A stretch of DNA of 64,000 nt from a virus (lineage: Duplodnaviria; Heunggongvirae; Uroviricota; Caudoviricetes). This document shows positions 48,227-54,733 of this stretch, one piece after another. The stretch's first letter is position 1, and each line of letters begins with the position of its first letter. The stretch lies in the IMG/VR virus record IMGVR_UViG_2675903278_000002. One strand, given 5' to 3'. The notes beneath the pieces are model-generated. The model made no database searches, was not told the DNA's origin, and saw only the letters and a list, made by a program, of their open reading frames with translations. The position numbers were made by a program, and so were the translations under genes.

Positions 48227-48610
48227 GTGTTTATTGAAGCGTTTGCAAGTTTGATGCAGAAGGCAAAGATTGGCACGGTCGGGACTGACATTTTCTGTCA
48301 CTACTTGCCTGCCAATGTGAAATCTGGCGTCCTGCTTATTAACCCAAATACCGGCATCAGCATCGATCATGAGCTACAGGGCTTTTATCACGAATCATTC
48401 ACAATCATTGTGCGTGGTTCGTCAATTACTACGACGGTTGAGAAAGCCCATAAAATCATTGAGATGTTTCCAGTAGAGGAAACGGAATCTGGTGGTGTTT
48501 ATTTTCGACTTGTACGACCGATGGCGATGCCAATCATTTATCCCAAAAATGATGGGGCATTAATAGAAGCAGGCATTCCTGTTGAATTTGCTGGCTATTT
48601 ATTGAATTAA
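48227..48610 (+). CDS. hypothetical structural protein (possible tail terminator)
   Basis: ~127 aa from GTG just after previous stop, in frame with track ORF 48104; ATG at ~48254 also possible. Confidence 0.5.
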   Translation: MFIEAFASLMQKAKIGTVGTDIFCHYLPANVKSGVLLINPNTGISIDHELQGFYHESFTIIVRGSSITTTVEKAHKIIEMFPVEETESGGVYFRLVRPMAMPIIYPKNDGALIEAGIPVEFAGYLLN

Positions 48611-48616
48611 CTCAAT

Positions 48617-48638
48617 TGGTAAGTATATACTTACTATT
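48617..48638. repeat. class-B palindrome
   Basis: TTGGTAAGTATATACTTACTAT before major tail protein gene. Confidence 0.55.
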
Positions 48639-48684
48639 AGCGCAATGAATGCGTAGAATTAACGGAAAAAGGAGTTTTCCATCA

Positions 48685-49431
48685 ATGTCTAATACCCATG
48701 TAAAAAACATCAAACTTGGTGCCTGTAAGGTGTCGTTTGGTGGTGTGGATTTGGGTTACACCAAAGGTGGTGTTCAGGTTGAAGTAGCCACTGAAACGCT
48801 GAAAGTCACCGTCGATCAGTTGGGGCAGACCGTAATTTCCGAATTAGTTCAGGGGCGCAACATTACCATCACCGCGCCTCTGGCTGAGTCTGTACTCCAA
48901 AACATGGTTGACCTGATGCCTGGTTCTACTCTGAGCGAAGATGACAACTCTGTCACGATCACATCTGCACAGGGCGTTAACCTGATTGATGTGGCGAAGG
49001 AGCTGGTTCTGACTCCGCAGGACACCACCGACTATGTGTTGACCATCCCGAAAGCGGCAACCGCGGGCAACTTCACTATGACCTACCAGTCTGATGATGT
49101 TCGTGTGTTCTCTGTTCAGTTCAGCGCATACCCGGATGATGAAGGCGTTCTGGGCAAAATGAGCGGTCCTAAACCGGTAAAAACTGTGTCGATCTCACCG
49201 GAATCTCCAACCGTAAAAGCTGGAGAAACTGTGCAACTGACAGCCGAAATCACTCCAGCTGATGCCGCAGACAAAACCGGTGTTTGGGAATCCGAAGACC
49301 AGGAAAAGGCCACGGTAGATCAAACGGGTCTGGTACGTGGTGTGGCGCAGGGTTCTACAAATATCTCCTTCACCAGCAATAGCGGTGGTAAGAAGGCAAC
49401 TAAGTCAGTAACGATTAACCCCGCAGATTAA
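48685..49431 (+). CDS. major tail protein with C-terminal Ig-like (Big_2) domain
   Basis: ~248 aa from ATG with AAAGGAG RBS, in frame with track ORF 48649; C-terminal ~80 aa repeats the Big_2 pattern; lies before G/GT chaperones and tape measure. Confidence 0.75.
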   Translation: MSNTHVKNIKLGACKVSFGGVDLGYTKGGVQVEVATETLKVTVDQLGQTVISELVQGRNITITAPLAESVLQNMVDLMPGSTLSEDDNSVTITSAQGVNLIDVAKELVLTPQDTTDYVLTIPKAATAGNFTMTYQSDDVRVFSVQFSAYPDDEGVLGKMSGPKPVKTVSISPESPTVKAGETVQLTAEITPADAADKTGVWESEDQEKATVDQTGLVRGVAQGSTNISFTSNSGGKKATKSVTINPAD

Positions 49432-49442
49432 TCAGTAATTAA

Positions 49443-49471
49443 GCAGAGGCTCAGGATGGGCCTCTCTTTTA
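49443..49471 (+). terminator. rho-independent terminator/attenuator
   Basis: AGAGGC-TCAGGATG-GGCCTCT hairpin followed by CTTTT. Confidence 0.65.
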
Positions 49472-49486
49472 AAAGGATTTTAACCA

Positions 49487-49804
49487 ATGACCAAATTACT
49501 CGATCTCGATTCCATTCTGCCTCCGAAGAAAAGCATCAAATTTGGCGGTCAGGAATATCCCATCGTTGAAATGACGGTAGGTCTGTTCGTTTCCATCAAG
49601 CAGATGGAAGGCAAAGATCTCATGAACATGTCTCCTGTTGAGCAAGTGACAGCTTATGCAGATCTGGTTCGTAAGGTTATCCCTTCAGTACCTGACGAAG
49701 TTCTTGAAAAACTGACTGTTCCGCAACTCCAGCAGATCTTCACCTTCGCTATGGAAGTGATTGATGAAGAAAACGAAAAAGCGGCTGGCGAAGGGGCAAA
49801 GTAA
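49487..49804 (+). CDS. tail assembly chaperone (lambda gpG-like)
   Basis: 105 aa acidic protein between major tail protein and tape measure; overlapped at its 3' end by a -1 frame ORF. Confidence 0.65.
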   Translation: MTKLLDLDSILPPKKSIKFGGQEYPIVEMTVGLFVSIKQMEGKDLMNMSPVEQVTAYADLVRKVIPSVPDEVLEKLTVPQLQQIFTFAMEVIDEENEKAAGEGAK

Positions 49805-50154
49805 TTTCCCGCGATGAATCCGGGACAAGGACCGTCTCAATAGATCTCGGATTCTATTTCAGTCGTGTAGTTGCTCACTACGCCGTGTCGCCATTAGAGC
49901 TACTGAACGTTCCTCTCACGATGTTCTGGATGCTCAGTCGCAATATAGACCGTCTGCGTGCGGAAGAGGATGTCCGCAACTTACAAGTCGCTCGTGCGTC
50001 CCAGGCGGATGGCGAGGCTGTGAAGGCGTTCATGGAGGGTTTGCAACTCAGGATTGGAAGACCAGTCGTAACAGATAAAGTCTACGATCCAAGCCAGGAT
50101 AAGGCAGACCCTGACGCCAAAGAGCAACTGATGCAAATATTTGGCAGAGGATGA
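49768..50154 (+). CDS. -1 frame extension of the tail assembly chaperone (gpGT-like frameshift product, C-terminal part)
   Basis: -1 frame open from ~49768 to 50154, overlapping last ~12 codons of the G-like gene; A-run GAAAAAG at ~49775-49781 in the overlap; track reports only 49885..50154. Confidence 0.5.
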   Translation, partial: RKRKSGWRRGKVISRDESGTRTVSIDLGFYFSRVVAHYAVSPLELLNVPLTMFWMLSRNIDRLRAEEDVRNLQVARASQADGEAVKAFMEGLQLRIGRPVVTDKVYDPSQDKADPDAKEQLMQIFGRG

Positions 50155-53100
50155 CAAGGGAATGTCACAAAACGTAGAGTTTATCCTGTCGCTGGAAGAC
50201 AAACAGTTTACAGCGTCAATCGATCGTGCGGGGAAACTGCTTACTCGATTTGGTGAGCAGGTAACAAAGCCTGCTCAAAAAATCCAAACCTTTGAACGCT
50301 CTTTGGGTTCGGTCGCCCGTATCATTGGCGTTCTGGAAAGCAAGCTCGATTCTACGGCAGATAAACTACAGGATGTAGCTGCCGGTTTTGAGCTTGCTTC
50401 AGATGCTACGCGTAAAATGCGTGGCAACATCACCAGCCTCAATTCTGGTCTTAAAGCCCTGATTGAGCGCGTCGATACGACAACTTCTTCAGTAGATAAA
50501 CTCACCGCGTCATTACGTAAAGTGCAATCAGAGCTAAATGATTTCTCTGATTGGGCGACCTATGCAAGCAAAAGCGCAAGCCGCTTTGGTACGGAGGTCA
50601 AAGAAGCCTCTGCGTCCGTGAGTGGCATGAATACGCGCCTTAATACCACGACGAAGCGACTCAGTAATTGGGGTGTCACAACGAGTCAGGCTGCCGAGGG
50701 ACTGAAAAAGGTTCGTGAGCAGATGGACGAAGTTATCGGACGTCAGCAACTGATTAGCAAGCCGGTACGCGTTCGTACATCTGGAAGTGGCGATGGTGGT
50801 AGCGGGCGGCGTAGCGGCGCTTCTGGCCATAGCGGTAAAAGTAACGAAGGAGGTATGTTCTCTGGCCTTCGTGGCAACATTTTCCTGCTTGGCGAGATCG
50901 GAGATGCAGCCAGAACGGTTACTGACATCATGTTTGGGTGGCAGAAGCCTATTGTTGAAGCTGCGGCCGAAATGGAACGTATGCGGGTGATGCTTCGAGG
51001 GTTGAATAAGGAGAAGTCCAACCCGGGCCAGGCTGCCGCTGATGATATGAAGTACATCGTAGACATGGCGCAAAATGCGCCGTTCGCGATGCAGGCGTTA
51101 ACAGATTCCTTCGTGAAGTTTCGTTCTGCTGGCTTAGATCCAACCGATGGTTCTCTGAAGGCGCTGGTGGACTCCGTTGCTCGTTTTGGTGGTGATAGTG
51201 AGCTGTTGAAACGTGCGGCTGTGGCCGTTCAGCAGATGTCCGGTAAGGGCGTTGTGTCAATGGAAGAGCTACGTCAGCAATTAGGTGAAGCCGTTCCTAA
51301 CGCGATGCAGGCAATGGCAGACGCCGCAGGCATCACTATGGGGGAACTGACTAAAGCCGTTGCCAGCGGTACGGTTGAGGCAAAACAGGCGTTGTCTCTG
51401 ATGTTTGTTGGTCTGCGTGCGGAGAATGAGAACGCAGCGAAAGACATGATGCAAACCTACACAGGTGCGCTGGCGCAACTTCAGACGTCATTCACGTTAT
51501 TTGCTGATCGGGTTGGTCAGGCCGGATATCTGGATTCTCTATCGAAGGGGATGAAAGAACTGGCTTCAATCATGAATAGCGCCGAAGGGATTTCGTTTGC
51601 CAATTCTTTAGGCTCGGGGTTAACGACGGCAATCGATGGGTTGCGTCAGCTTGCTCAATGGTTAGCAAAGAACCAAGAGCTGGTAATTAATCTCGGTAAG
51701 GTCGTGGCCGCGATGGTTGCGTTCAAACTGATGCGAGCAGGGATCATGGGGGTAGTTGGCGCAGGCAGCCAGATGGTTAGCACCTTTGCCACGATGGCGA
51801 CCGCCATACAGACCCCATTTAACCTCGGCGCTACAGCAGTAACCCGATTCAATCGTGCGGCACGTATGGGGCTGGCTCCGATCCCCTCTCTTATTTTCGC
51901 CATCCGTGGGGCGATTACGGGGCTTAAAGGCGCTTTTGCTGGATTAACGGCGTTCATTGCGGCAAACCCTATAGGGGCAGCATTTACAGTCGCCACTGTA
52001 GCTGTTGCTGGCCTAATCACGTACATGACCATGCTCCGCAGCGAAACTTCAAAGGTCGTTGACGAGATTAGGAAAATACCAGAGGCGATGACGGCGGCCA
52101 AACGTGCACAAATGGCCGACCGCGCAGAAAAGCTCGAAAAGCAGATTCTTGCTGATCAACGAGCATTAAAAACTGGTGAGGGTGTTAATTACGTATCTAA
52201 CTCTGCCGGTGTTATTACTCACAAAGAGTCGAAGGCTGACATCGAAGCACGCCTGAAAAAAAATCAGGAAGAGTATCAAAAGATAACCGGCACGATAGCT
52301 CTTGGTGACGGCGCTGTAGCAAAGCGTTTGGCTAAAGAGGCTGCCGAATCTCAGATTGAGAAAATTCGAGCGGAAAACCAGATTTTCGCGGCAACATTCG
52401 TGAAAGCCCGGCAAGAGGCTCTGGATAAGATCCAGAAAATCAATGATGACGGTTCACTTTCAGATGACGAAAAGAACAAGCTATTGGCACCGTTACGTGA
52501 AACGGTAAACAAAAGCTATCTGGAGCCTGCGCAAAAACTGGTTGATTCACTTTCTTCTCGTAAGAATGCGACCGAGAAGCAAATTGCGACTCTTAATGAT
52601 CAGCTTGAAAAAGCCAAAAAGGATGGAAATACCGAGCAGATCCAGAAACTGCAAGGCAGTATTCGTGGTTATCAGGAGCATTTGGAAGCCGTTGCTCAGG
52701 AGCTGACTCAGGCAGAGTTCGAGAGAGATAACGCGGCCAAAACTGGTAAGGGCGTAATGTCAAACCAGGGGACTGTTCTTGGGTTAGGTACAACTGATAA
52801 AGCTGCTCAGAAGGCGTTGGCGCAATATATGCGAAACCAGATGGATTCTGCGACTTATCAGCGTACTTTGCCTGACGGCACTCCGATGATGGACTTCGAA
52901 GGTAAGCCGATTATTGGGCCTAAACAACTCAAGACGCAGCTTAATTTGCAGAAAGCATCCAGTGCCAGCTCTCTGGAGAAAATGAGCGATGAAGAGCGTG
53001 CCGCAGCCATTGCCGCACTTACTAAAGCTCGTGAACAGGATGCAGCAGCTGCCGAGAAAGCAGCCCAACGATCAGCTAACGCCTCGCAGCGTGCGGCCAA

Positions 53101-54733
53101 GAAGGAACAGGCAGCGCAACAGAAACTGGCAGCCGGATACCAGAAGGCTCTGGACAAAGCTGATCAGCTTATGGGGCAAATGGGTGAAAGCTCTAAGGCT
53201 ACGGTATCGTTTGATCAGTCTCTTCGCGATACAACGAAATCGCTGACAGATTTGGCTAATGCGGTACCTAACGAGTTCATCACTCAAGAGATGATCGACA
53301 AGGCGAAAAAACGTCTTGAAGACCTCAAAAATGCGACACCTGAATATCGCGAGATGTTTAATCGCCGCAATGTTGAGCAGATGATCTCCACTTGGGCACC
53401 GGAGGCGGATTCCATTATTAGTGCTGGCTATACGCCGTCTCGCGAAGAGAAAGTTGCTGATTTCGAAGACACCTACAACCGCAATCTCAAAGCGTTGATA
53501 GAACTTCGTGATAAGGCGTCTGATCCTAAAGTTGTGGCGCTTTATACAAAGAAAATCAATCAACTGATTGCTGCTGGCAATACCGCGCTTATTAAAGAGA
53601 CGGGGACTGCGACGCAGAAGTTGGCACTGGAATACGAAAATCTGGCAGAGCAGATCGAAAGCACCTGGACTGATTTGTTTAGTGGCTTAACTGATGTCCT
53701 GACTGATTTCGTTATTAACGGGAAGATGAGCTTCTCCAGCCTATCTCAGTCCATTTTGAAAGATATCACCAATATGGTCGTGAAGTCGCAGATCACGCTG
53801 CCTCTAATGAACATGTTGGGGATGGGAACCACCGCAGCTGGTAGTTCACAGAGTGGTAATTTGCTCACCGGGGTTGCTTCCGCAGTTGCCAATCAAGGTG
53901 TGCGCATAAGCAACACTGTTAATGGCGACAAGTCGGTAGGAGAAGCCACGAAGGAGACGTCCAGTTCGGTAACTGGATTGGGGCAAACGACACAGCAGAC
54001 CACCAGCGCAATTGGCACAGCAACAAATGCGATTGGTAGCTGGGTATCAGGGCTATTTAATAGCACCGAAGCCAAAGATGCTGAGACAAAAGCAGTGAAG
54101 GACTCCATCTTCTCGATGCAGAACCTCAGCTCTGTTACCGGCGCTCTGTCTGCCGCGTTTGCAATGCTTGGAGCTAATGCTTCCGGCTCTGGTAATAAGT
54201 GGTTGAATTTCGGCGCGACAGTTGCATCTGGTTTGGTTTCAGTATGGGCTGGTGGTGGATTCGATGGATTGATGTCCGGTTCTTCTGGCTCAACTTCCGG
54301 GTTCAACAATCTGACCAGTTCTGCTGCCGATGGCACGAATGGTATTCCTGCAATTCCGAAGTTTGCAAATGGTGGCATATTCGGAAAAGACGGCGTGATC
54401 CCGCTCCGGGCATACCAGAAAGGCGGTATCGCCAACTCACCTCAATTGGCGTTGTTTGGGGAAGGCGATATGAATGAGGCGTATGTTCCATTGCCTGATG
54501 GTCGAACAATCCCTGTAACGCTCAGTACCGATGGTATGAGTGGAGGAGGAAATGTTCTTTCTCCGGTATCAATTGAGATCAACGTCCATAGTGACGGTAG
54601 CACAACTGAATCCGGCGATACAGAAAGCATATGGAACAATGCCGCTCAACGGATGAAAGCAATCGCGCTTGAGACTATCGCTCAAGAGAAACGCCCTGGC
54701 GGATCACTCAACCCAAACACTCAACGTAACTAA
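50141..54733 (+). CDS. tail tape measure protein
   Basis: 1530 aa; long helical N-terminal two-thirds, Gly/Ser-rich C-terminal part; canonical position after G/GT and before tail-tip genes. Confidence 0.9.
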   Translation: MAEDDKGMSQNVEFILSLEDKQFTASIDRAGKLLTRFGEQVTKPAQKIQTFERSLGSVARIIGVLESKLDSTADKLQDVAAGFELASDATRKMRGNITSLNSGLKALIERVDTTTSSVDKLTASLRKVQSELNDFSDWATYASKSASRFGTEVKEASASVSGMNTRLNTTTKRLSNWGVTTSQAAEGLKKVREQMDEVIGRQQLISKPVRVRTSGSGDGGSGRRSGASGHSGKSNEGGMFSGLRGNIFLLGEIGDAARTVTDIMFGWQKPIVEAAAEMERMRVMLRGLNKEKSNPGQAAADDMKYIVDMAQNAPFAMQALTDSFVKFRSAGLDPTDGSLKALVDSVARFGGDSELLKRAAVAVQQMSGKGVVSMEELRQQLGEAVPNAMQAMADAAGITMGELTKAVASGTVEAKQALSLMFVGLRAENENAAKDMMQTYTGALAQLQTSFTLFADRVGQAGYLDSLSKGMKELASIMNSAEGISFANSLGSGLTTAIDGLRQLAQWLAKNQELVINLGKVVAAMVAFKLMRAGIMGVVGAGSQMVSTFATMATAIQTPFNLGATAVTRFNRAARMGLAPIPSLIFAIRGAITGLKGAFAGLTAFIAANPIGAAFTVATVAVAGLITYMTMLRSETSKVVDEIRKIPEAMTAAKRAQMADRAEKLEKQILADQRALKTGEGVNYVSNSAGVITHKESKADIEARLKKNQEEYQKITGTIALGDGAVAKRLAKEAAESQIEKIRAENQIFAATFVKARQEALDKIQKINDDGSLSDDEKNKLLAPLRETVNKSYLEPAQKLVDSLSSRKNATEKQIATLNDQLEKAKKDGNTEQIQKLQGSIRGYQEHLEAVAQELTQAEFERDNAAKTGKGVMSNQGTVLGLGTTDKAAQKALAQYMRNQMDSATYQRTLPDGTPMMDFEGKPIIGPKQLKTQLNLQKASSASSLEKMSDEERAAAIAALTKAREQDAAAAEKAAQRSANASQRAAKKEQAAQQKLAAGYQKALDKADQLMGQMGESSKATVSFDQSLRDTTKSLTDLANAVPNEFITQEMIDKAKKRLEDLKNATPEYREMFNRRNVEQMISTWAPEADSIISAGYTPSREEKVADFEDTYNRNLKALIELRDKASDPKVVALYTKKINQLIAAGNTALIKETGTATQKLALEYENLAEQIESTWTDLFSGLTDVLTDFVINGKMSFSSLSQSILKDITNMVVKSQITLPLMNMLGMGTTAAGSSQSGNLLTGVASAVANQGVRISNTVNGDKSVGEATKETSSSVTGLGQTTQQTTSAIGTATNAIGSWVSGLFNSTEAKDAETKAVKDSIFSMQNLSSVTGALSAAFAMLGANASGSGNKWLNFGATVASGLVSVWAGGGFDGLMSGSSGSTSGFNNLTSSAADGTNGIPAIPKFANGGIFGKDGVIPLRAYQKGGIANSPQLALFGEGDMNEAYVPLPDGRTIPVTLSTDGMSGGGNVLSPVSIEINVHSDGSTTESGDTESIWNNAAQRMKAIALETIAQEKRPGGSLNPNTQRN

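Follow-up and report, generated by a model that had tools for sequence, protein, structure and literature searches.

A predicted −1 frameshift of the G/GT type, at an A_AAG flush with the G stop, in the tail module of an SSU5-like phage-plasmid

A G/GT frameshift has been described for lambda and for most long-tailed double-stranded DNA phages (Levin, Hendrix, Casjens 1993; Xu, Hendrix, Duda 2004; summarised in PMC5009743). The locus considered here raises the question of whether two short open reading frames (ORFs), G and T, which lie between the major tail protein and the tape measure genes of a member of the Caudoviricetes, are two genes or one and, if one, where the ribosomes would change frame. 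They are found in a 64,000-nucleotide stretch of DNA from the IMG/VR record IMGVR_UViG_2675903278_000002, hereafter the window, whose positions are used throughout. Since the region from 48600 to 50300 shares 99.6% identity with Escherichia phage Cyrano and 86% with Salmonella phage SSU5, it represents the tail module of an SSU5-like phage-plasmid. An initial annotation had read the locus as the conserved −1 frameshift joining a G-like chaperone to a T-like extension, and this reading finds strong comparative support in a coding linker devoid of start codons and in the canonical slippery heptamers of distant relatives. We propose, with a probability of about 0.75 and on the strength of sequence comparison, that G and T form a G/GT chaperone pair expressed by a low-efficiency −1 slip at the A_AAG preceding the G stop, with a predicted fusion of 222 amino acids.

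The reading frames of G and T

The order of the genes (major tail protein, G, T, tape measure protein; Table 1) is that of a G/GT locus, and T, lacking a separate translation start, runs in another frame over the 3' end of G. As the initial annotation had described, the −1-frame ORF runs from the end of G to the start of the tape measure gene: this frame is free of stops from 49768 to the TGA at 50152-50154 (128 codons), overlaps the sense codons of G by 34 nucleotides (nt) and ends 8 nt before the tape measure ATG (50162). A stop-free segment of this kind was obtained by chance in 53 of 20000 dinucleotide shuffles, and the longest stop-free run in an alternative frame of 16 neighbouring plus-strand genes is 92 codons, versus 128 here; the frame is thus open to a greater extent than chance would give. 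The A-run GAAAAAG is indeed present within the overlap, and the ORF track contains the downstream part of T alone, the first ATG, GTG or TTG of the −1 frame being GTG 49885.

Table 1. Features of the G/T locus, in window coordinates
Feature	Position	Strand	Remarks
Major tail protein gene	48649..49431	+	Pfam Big_2 (5.8e-26); phrog_1280 and several major-tail PHROGs; upstream neighbour of G
G-like ORF	49487..49804	+	ATG 49487 to TAA 49802-49804; 105 amino acids; product of standard decoding
A-run GAAAAAG	49775..49781	+	phase in the G frame GAA_AAA_G; probably not the programmed site
Proposed shift site G_GCA_AAG	49795..49801	+	operative tetranucleotide A_AAG, 49798-49801
T extension, −1 frame	49801..50154	+	117 codons, GTA 49801 to TGA 50152-50154
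G stop TAA	49802..49804	+	follows the slip codon immediately; shares bases with GTA and ATT, which open T
T linker	49804..49884	+	27 codons, without ATG, GTG or TTG
Candidate stimulatory hairpin	49816..49854	+	GAAUCCGG (49816-49823) pairs with UCGGAUUC (49847-49854); 8 bp, 23-nt loop
Tape measure protein gene	50162..54733	+	1523 amino acids from ATG; TMP_3 (4.3e-27), Tape_meas_lam_C (6.1e-13)

No ATG, GTG or TTG occurs in the −1 frame across 49768-49884, so that the linker forming the first part of T could be read only by ribosomes coming from G. Comparison of 48 distinct T sequences indicates that this linker is under purifying selection as a −1-frame protein from its first codon on. Indeed, its variable sites are distributed 16/10/25 over positions 1/2/3 of the 27 codons, its indels comprise whole codons, and its pairwise ratio of nonsynonymous to synonymous polymorphism (pN/pS) is 0.19-0.59, against 0.12-0.43 in the body of T. 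The most conserved motif of the family, SIDLGFYFSRV, lies in the linker, upstream of GTG 49885, and the Asp of the IDL/IDF motif is invariant, including in the Pseudomonas, Rhizobium, Stenotrophomonas and Azospirillum relatives. Furthermore, tblastn matches to Pseudomonas, Rhizobium and Stenotrophomonas phages start at residues 108-119 of the fusion, before any start codon, and cross the annotated boundary of "two hypothetical proteins".

The conserved junction at the end of G

In total, 99 loci of the SSU5 clade (69 of them distinct; locus numbers such as L013 refer to our set) were collected from phages, plasmids, GTDB genomes and IMG/VR, with three close sequences serving for the locus search, for which an alignment of distant T domains was too divergent. 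Relative to G, T occupies the −1 frame at each of the 99 clade loci and in nine of nine distant relatives. In every one of the 69 distinct sequences, G ends with GCA or GTA, then AAG, then directly TAA or TAG (49796-49804 in the window), and this is the only element common to all of them within the last 10 nt of the gene. The GCA_AAG of the window (49796-49801) is phased as NNA_AAG in the zero frame, the −1 frame running open through it, and the motif is conserved at the nucleotide level beyond what the protein needs. In a codon-constraint analysis of 58 distinct G sequences, the terminal AAG has the only invariant third base among 22 degenerate columns whose amino acid is invariant, while Lys codons elsewhere in G are AAA 362 times and AAG 165 times. 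Codon 104 varies between Ala and Val and always has A as its third base (NNA).

The distant relatives help to interpret this site. Eight of the nine have a canonical slippery heptamer in the G frame near the G stop: G_GGA_AAA in Pseudomonas phage hairong, G_GGA_AAG in Rhizobium phage V1VFA-S and in Photobacterium ganghwense (L029), G_GGA_AAC in Rhizobium phages RHEph10 and RHph_Y2_11, C_CCA_AAG in Pseudomonas phage ZY21, A_AAA_AAA(G) in Stenotrophomonas phage BUCTxx99 and A_AAA_AAG in an Oxalobacter metagenome-assembled genome (L030). For the ninth, Azospirillum pAB510b, the −1 frame relationship is established only. The A_AAG of the window aligns codon for codon with the G_GGA_AAG of the Photobacterium locus, where the junction reads …SEGK|GITRNESG…, as compared with …EGAK|VISRDESG… through G_GCA_AAG in the window. 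In the relatives with canonical heptamers the G stop lies 1-10 codons further on, whereas in the clade it is flush with the AAG. Because the clade junction is thus positionally homologous to the canonical Photobacterium site, the clade site looks like a degenerated lambda-type heptamer (GGA to GCA/GUA) with the stop moved up against it.

RHEph10 also has a very stable hairpin (locus L009, 1528-1566), which begins 8 nt after its G_GGA_AAC and has a minimum free energy (MFE) of −24.9 kcal/mol over 65 nt (z −4.9). Such a hairpin is typical of frameshift stimulators, in contrast to the weak candidate of the SSU5 clade, and the frameshift is unannotated in the RHEph10 record too.

The A-run that the initial annotation had pointed to does not stand up as the slip site. 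GAAAAAG is out of phase for an X_XXY_YYZ heptamer because the G frame reads it as GAA_AAA_G. Diverged clade members have GAAGCCG, CAACATG or CATCACG in its place, non-slippery sequence standing there in Klebsiella L013-L015 and L110, Photorhabdus L024, Morganella L026 and Xenorhabdus L027 and L028, and the codons of the A-run are under no special synonymous constraint (column 98 is AAA, GCC, CAA or CAT). Moreover, 30 of the 69 distinct relatives, SSU5 and Yersinia pestis pMT1 among them, have a −1-frame TGA between the A-run and T. This TGA arises by a synonymous change from GGC to GGT in G (G GTG AA), 10 nt before the G stop and homologous to 49787-49791; its carriers include L002, L013, L017 and L018 as well as members from Buttiauxella, Kluyvera, Morganella and Xenorhabdus hominickii, and in all 30 the open −1 frame overlaps the last 10 nt of G only. 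The initial annotation is thus supported as to the kind of event and not as to its site, the conserved element in the G/T overlap being A_AAG.

Mechanism, stimulators and alternative readings

In the proposed mechanism, most ribosomes translating the 105 codons of G would end at TAA 49802 and a minority would slip back by one nt on the final codon before it. There the one tRNA-Lys of E. coli, sitting on AAG (49799-49801), would re-pair to AAA (49798-49800), the next codon would be GTA (49801-49803), and reading in the −1 frame to TGA 50152-50154 would give a fusion of 105 + 117 = 222 amino acids with the junction …AAGEGAK|VISRDESGTRTVSIDLGFYFSRV…. If the proteins act as lambda gpG and gpGT do, the tape measure protein would be coated by G and by the G portion of GT, with the T portion bringing in the major tail protein, and the rarity of the slip would fix the G:GT ratio. 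The same protein would result from either of two modes: slippage of tRNA-Lys by itself in the A site (the NNA_AAG hexanucleotide mode), or its slippage in the P site while the stop occupies the A site. We infer the occurrence and frequency of the slip, its A-site or P-site mode and its stimulation by the stop and by a hairpin. The direct adjacency of the stop to the AAG in 69 of 69 clade sequences, versus its more distal position in the relatives with heptamers, suggests the P-site or "shifty stop" mode.

What is known of such sites is consistent with slippage here. In E. coli the tRNAs for GCA and GUA carry cmo5U34 and fall into a wobble-permissive class. The efficiency of NNA_AAG increases when a wobble-permissive tRNA reads the 5' codon, which frees the A for re-pairing, and natural use of A_AAG is found in A_CGA_AAG of Bacillus subtilis cdd and G_CGA_AAG of IS1222 (PMC5009743). 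A_AAG is by far the most shift-prone Z_ZZN −1 tetramer in E. coli, where it reaches 5.6% with a pseudoknot (PMC4066793).

A candidate stimulator downstream of the site emerged from the RNAalifold consensus of 14 diverse clade sequences as an 8-bp stem (49816-49854), with 97% of cells paired. One of its pairs occurs in four types (UA, GC, AU, UG), a non-synonymous change from Ser to Ala/Asn on the 5' arm being matched by a synonymous third-base change of Gly on the 3' arm. Its covariation score is reached by one of 500 shuffles and slid controls are clearly worse; the stem belongs to the MFE structure of the window, L013 and L015, and in L026 and L028 its 3' arm is paired, but with the register shifted. 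We regard it as a candidate frameshift stimulator only.

Other elements around the site were set aside. Among the 69 distinct clade sequences there is no conserved Shine-Dalgarno-like stimulator upstream of A_AAG. The AAGGGG of the window lies only 2 nt from AAG and is not conserved, its place being taken by GAAGAAG or GAAGACG in relatives; a Shine-Dalgarno sequence 2 nt from a slip codon has the spacing that favours +1 shifting. A small hairpin, UCCCG/CGGGA (49807-49811 with 49821-49825), has the ideal spacing, is not kept in L013, L015, L024 and L026, and also competes with the better conserved 8-bp stem. The GGC to GGT allele of 30 of the 69 sequences creates, along with the −1-frame TGA, a GGUGA 7 nt upstream of AAG; the window has neither.

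Several points weigh against the frameshift proposed here. No in-phase X_XXY_YYZ heptamer is found in 49768-49801, and the P-site tRNA-Ala or tRNA-Val re-pairs poorly (GCA to GGC). UAA-U is a strong termination context in E. coli, which argues against a long pause at the stop. Part of the constraint on AAG could be exerted at the protein level, because its G doubles as the initial base of the Val codon conserved in T. Since tetramers without a stimulator shift barely above background in E. coli (~0.15%; PMC4066793), a stimulator would be needed, and none is proven. The 8-bp stem lies at a spacing of 14 nt from AAG (11 nt from the stop) instead of the usual 5-9 nt, its z-score is −0.39 in the window, that is, no more stable than shuffles, and about −2 in relatives, and its single covarying pair perhaps reflects two independent events, both arms being coding. 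The Shine-Dalgarno-like GGUGA of many relatives is GGCGA in the window.

The identity of the proteins weighs in the same direction. G matches phrog_893 (4.5e-49) and T matches phrog_1131, whose profile covers only the part after the internal start, and both families are of "unknown function". In Pfam and NCBIfam, G and T match no curated chaperone family, with the lone exception of Phage_TAC_7 at E = 0.032 for one distant member, and a profile search of PDB sequences with G and T returned nothing relevant or significant. A single-sequence AlphaFold (AF2) model of G consists of a β-hairpin followed by four helices, with a predicted local distance difference test score (pLDDT) of 73 and a predicted template modelling score (pTM) of 0.61. 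Its best BFVD matches include eight "tail assembly chaperone" proteins, and the fold offers weak support because these E-values are 2e-3 or worse and come from such a model. G is nevertheless taken as a putative tail assembly chaperone from its position and the frameshift architecture, the function itself being one that we infer.

Could T be a separate small protein, made without any frameshift from GTG 49885 (89 amino acids) or ATG 49921 (77 amino acids)? A separate T is what is annotated in Cyrano, SSU5, PhiR41_1, Klebsiella phages and RefSeq plasmids, the RefSeq annotations of relatives starting it at the ATG of the MFWML motif, which is 49921 here, and phrog_1131 models that part only. However, neither GTG 49885 (+0.9 kcal/mol) nor ATG 49921 (+0.4) has a Shine-Dalgarno sequence and both are among the worst 5-12% of random positions, whereas the G start has AAGGA (−5.4 kcal/mol) and the anti-Shine-Dalgarno energies of 11 of 14 other structural-gene starts range from −5.3 to −11.2 (the remaining three being −3.8, −3.5 and −1.5 kcal/mol); of the 17 neighbouring gene starts scored in all, 14 lie in that range. 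The first start codon of T also differs in position and type among relatives (codon 9, 28, 33-40 or 44), and both the selection on the 27 upstream codons, with SIDLGFYFSRV and the invariant Asp, and the alignment of distant homologs through the startless region run counter to a separate T, which we hold to be improbable. The coding constraint on the linker would be accounted for if ribosomes terminating at the TAA of G reinitiated at AUU 49804-49806 (UAAUU), in a geometry like that of UAAUG-type translational coupling, to produce a free T of ~116 amino acids and no fusion. Yet there is no conserved start-like codon after GTA, since ATT, ATA, GTT or GAA is found there among relatives, and such a scheme accounts neither for the conserved Val codon GTA upstream, nor for the invariant A_AAG, nor for the canonical heptamers at the same place in distant relatives; its chances appear minimal.

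A programmed −1 shift could also be imagined at the A-run, where tRNA-Lys would move from AAA 49778-49780 to AAA 49777-49779 and give …EENEK-SGWRRGKVISRDESG…. The −1 frame of the window is open from 49768, hence T could be reached, and A_AA.A belongs to the six tetramers with measurable shifting in E. coli, though it is the weakest of the active ones (PMC4066793). A protein from ENA, P0001, reads exactly so; encoded on a contig of 111509 nt and corresponding to 49487-49860 of the window, it enters the −1 frame at the A-run (…EENEK-SGWRRGKVISRDESG…). It switches frame again further on and has this single contig as its source; a homopolymer indel in the A5 run of the assembly would explain its junction, and it could be mistaken for a "fusion" in databases. 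With the run missing from diverged members of the clade and the TGA intervening in 30 of 69, a programmed shift at the A-run is very improbable; it could provide a minor extra product in the strain of the window, not a conserved signal. A +1 reading was rejected because the +1 frame closes five codons past the G stop, as was transcriptional slippage, there being no long homopolymer but only 3-5 A's.

The −1 slip at A_AAG, which we favour, can be set beside known systems. As in lambda gpG/gpGT, a pair of overlapping ORFs separates the major tail protein gene from the tape measure gene; the second of them is read in the −1 frame, lacks its own start and stops shortly before the tape measure gene, and the shift would fall on a Lys codon, AAG, close to the 3' end of G. 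Unlike lambda, the clade has G_GCA_AAG or N_GUA_AAG instead of G_GGA_AAG, the stop is flush with the slip codon, and the proteins are without detectable similarity to curated chaperone families. Tandem slippage is unavailable at such a site because the P-site tRNA cannot re-pair. This situation resembles that of cdd (A_CGA_AAG) and IS1222 (G_CGA_AAG), where a single tRNA-Lys moves from AAG to AAA, the preceding tRNA cannot re-pair and the 5' codon ends with A. On the other hand, the 5' codon is here GCA/GUA and not CGA, the context is that of a phage tail chaperone with an adjoining stop, the window lacks an upstream Shine-Dalgarno stimulator and its candidate downstream structure is further away than usual. 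A zero-frame stop directly after the slip codon is shared with prfB (CUU_UGA, +1) and antizyme (+1) (PMC5009743, PMC10885494), and with this arrangement competition between termination and slippage could set the product ratio. Those sites shift +1 and that of the window −1; prfB, in addition, has its stop in a weak context and a Shine-Dalgarno sequence at close spacing, as opposed to UAA-U and no conserved Shine-Dalgarno sequence here. In E. coli dnaX (A_AAA_AAG), finally, the same shift-prone tRNA-Lys acts on AAG with stimulation by a downstream hairpin, but dnaX has a full heptamer, an upstream Shine-Dalgarno sequence, a strong hairpin, ~50% efficiency and a shorter product (PMC5009743), while the motif of the window is minimal, its efficiency presumably low and its product longer.

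The G/GT tail chaperone frameshift is itself textbook; the site of this clade is non-canonical. We tentatively suggest, at somewhat less than even odds, that the clade has exchanged the canonical heptamer for a minimal A_AAG flush with the stop, and that the stop and the distal hairpin, instead of tandem re-pairing, would set the G:GT ratio.

Neighbouring genes, annotation and spread

Genes for a tail terminator and for tail completion/Neck1 (phrog_927) precede the major tail protein gene. The major tail protein has, fused in frame at its C-terminus, a Big_2 Ig-like domain (residues 176-254, E = 5.8e-26), and in the Cyrano and SSU5 records it starts at 48685, 36 nt downstream, with a strong Shine-Dalgarno sequence (−8.2 kcal/mol). 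Between its stop (49431) and the G start (49487), a GC-rich hairpin at 49441-49468 (AGAGGCUCA-GGA-UGGGCCUCU, then CUUUUAAAA; MFE −15 kcal/mol, z −1.9) resembles a leaky intrinsic terminator, which would leave G, T and the tape measure protein less strongly expressed than the major tail protein. It was not reported by a simple terminator scan of 48500-50400, and the Rfam and tRNA scans of the window were empty. The tape measure protein matches phrog_1292 over its full length and its ATG is preceded by the Shine-Dalgarno sequence GAGGA (−5.8 kcal/mol), while the start chosen by the ORF lister, TTG 50141, has a weak one (−2.1 kcal/mol, about the median of random positions). The T stop falls within the GAGGA region, and termination of GT beside the tape measure start could couple the translation of both.

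With the fused G-T as query, tblastn matched 805 plasmid and 31 phage records. The plasmids are from Klebsiella, Escherichia, Enterobacter, Yersinia, Salmonella and Citrobacter, with 95.7% identity for Y. pestis pMT1. G and T are two "hypothetical proteins" in every annotated record listed, and neither a joined coding sequence nor a chaperone is annotated among Cyrano, SSU5, PhiR41_1, the Klebsiella phages and the RefSeq PGAP plasmids, including pMT1. A full-text search, of incomplete literature coverage, found no paper on a G/GT frameshift in SSU5-like elements. In a search of 5.8 billion proteins the fused GT gave six matches, all of at least 131 amino acids and mostly chimeric or mis-called ORFs, which provided no homolog set fit for use, hence the modelling of G from a single sequence. 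As the pair is present in more than 800 plasmids, short ORFs of ~75-105 amino acids seem under-represented or not indexed there, and missing matches for small phage proteins are uninformative.

The present reading would assign a function to the "hypothetical" families phrog_893 and phrog_1131 and would correct the gene model, T being an extension of G and not a separate gene. Because the conserved site consists only of A_AAG and a stop, frameshift finders based on heptamers would miss this family; PRFect missed three chaperone frameshifts of the Xu et al. 2004 phage set whose motif was outside its search list (PMC10885494). The locus also provides a natural setting in which −1 slippage on the final sense codon could be studied. 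If true, the A_AAG flush with the stop would represent a naturally selected and productively used −1 "shifty stop" in a structural gene, in a clade that spans SSU5, Cyrano, Y. pestis pMT1 and more than 800 sequenced plasmids.

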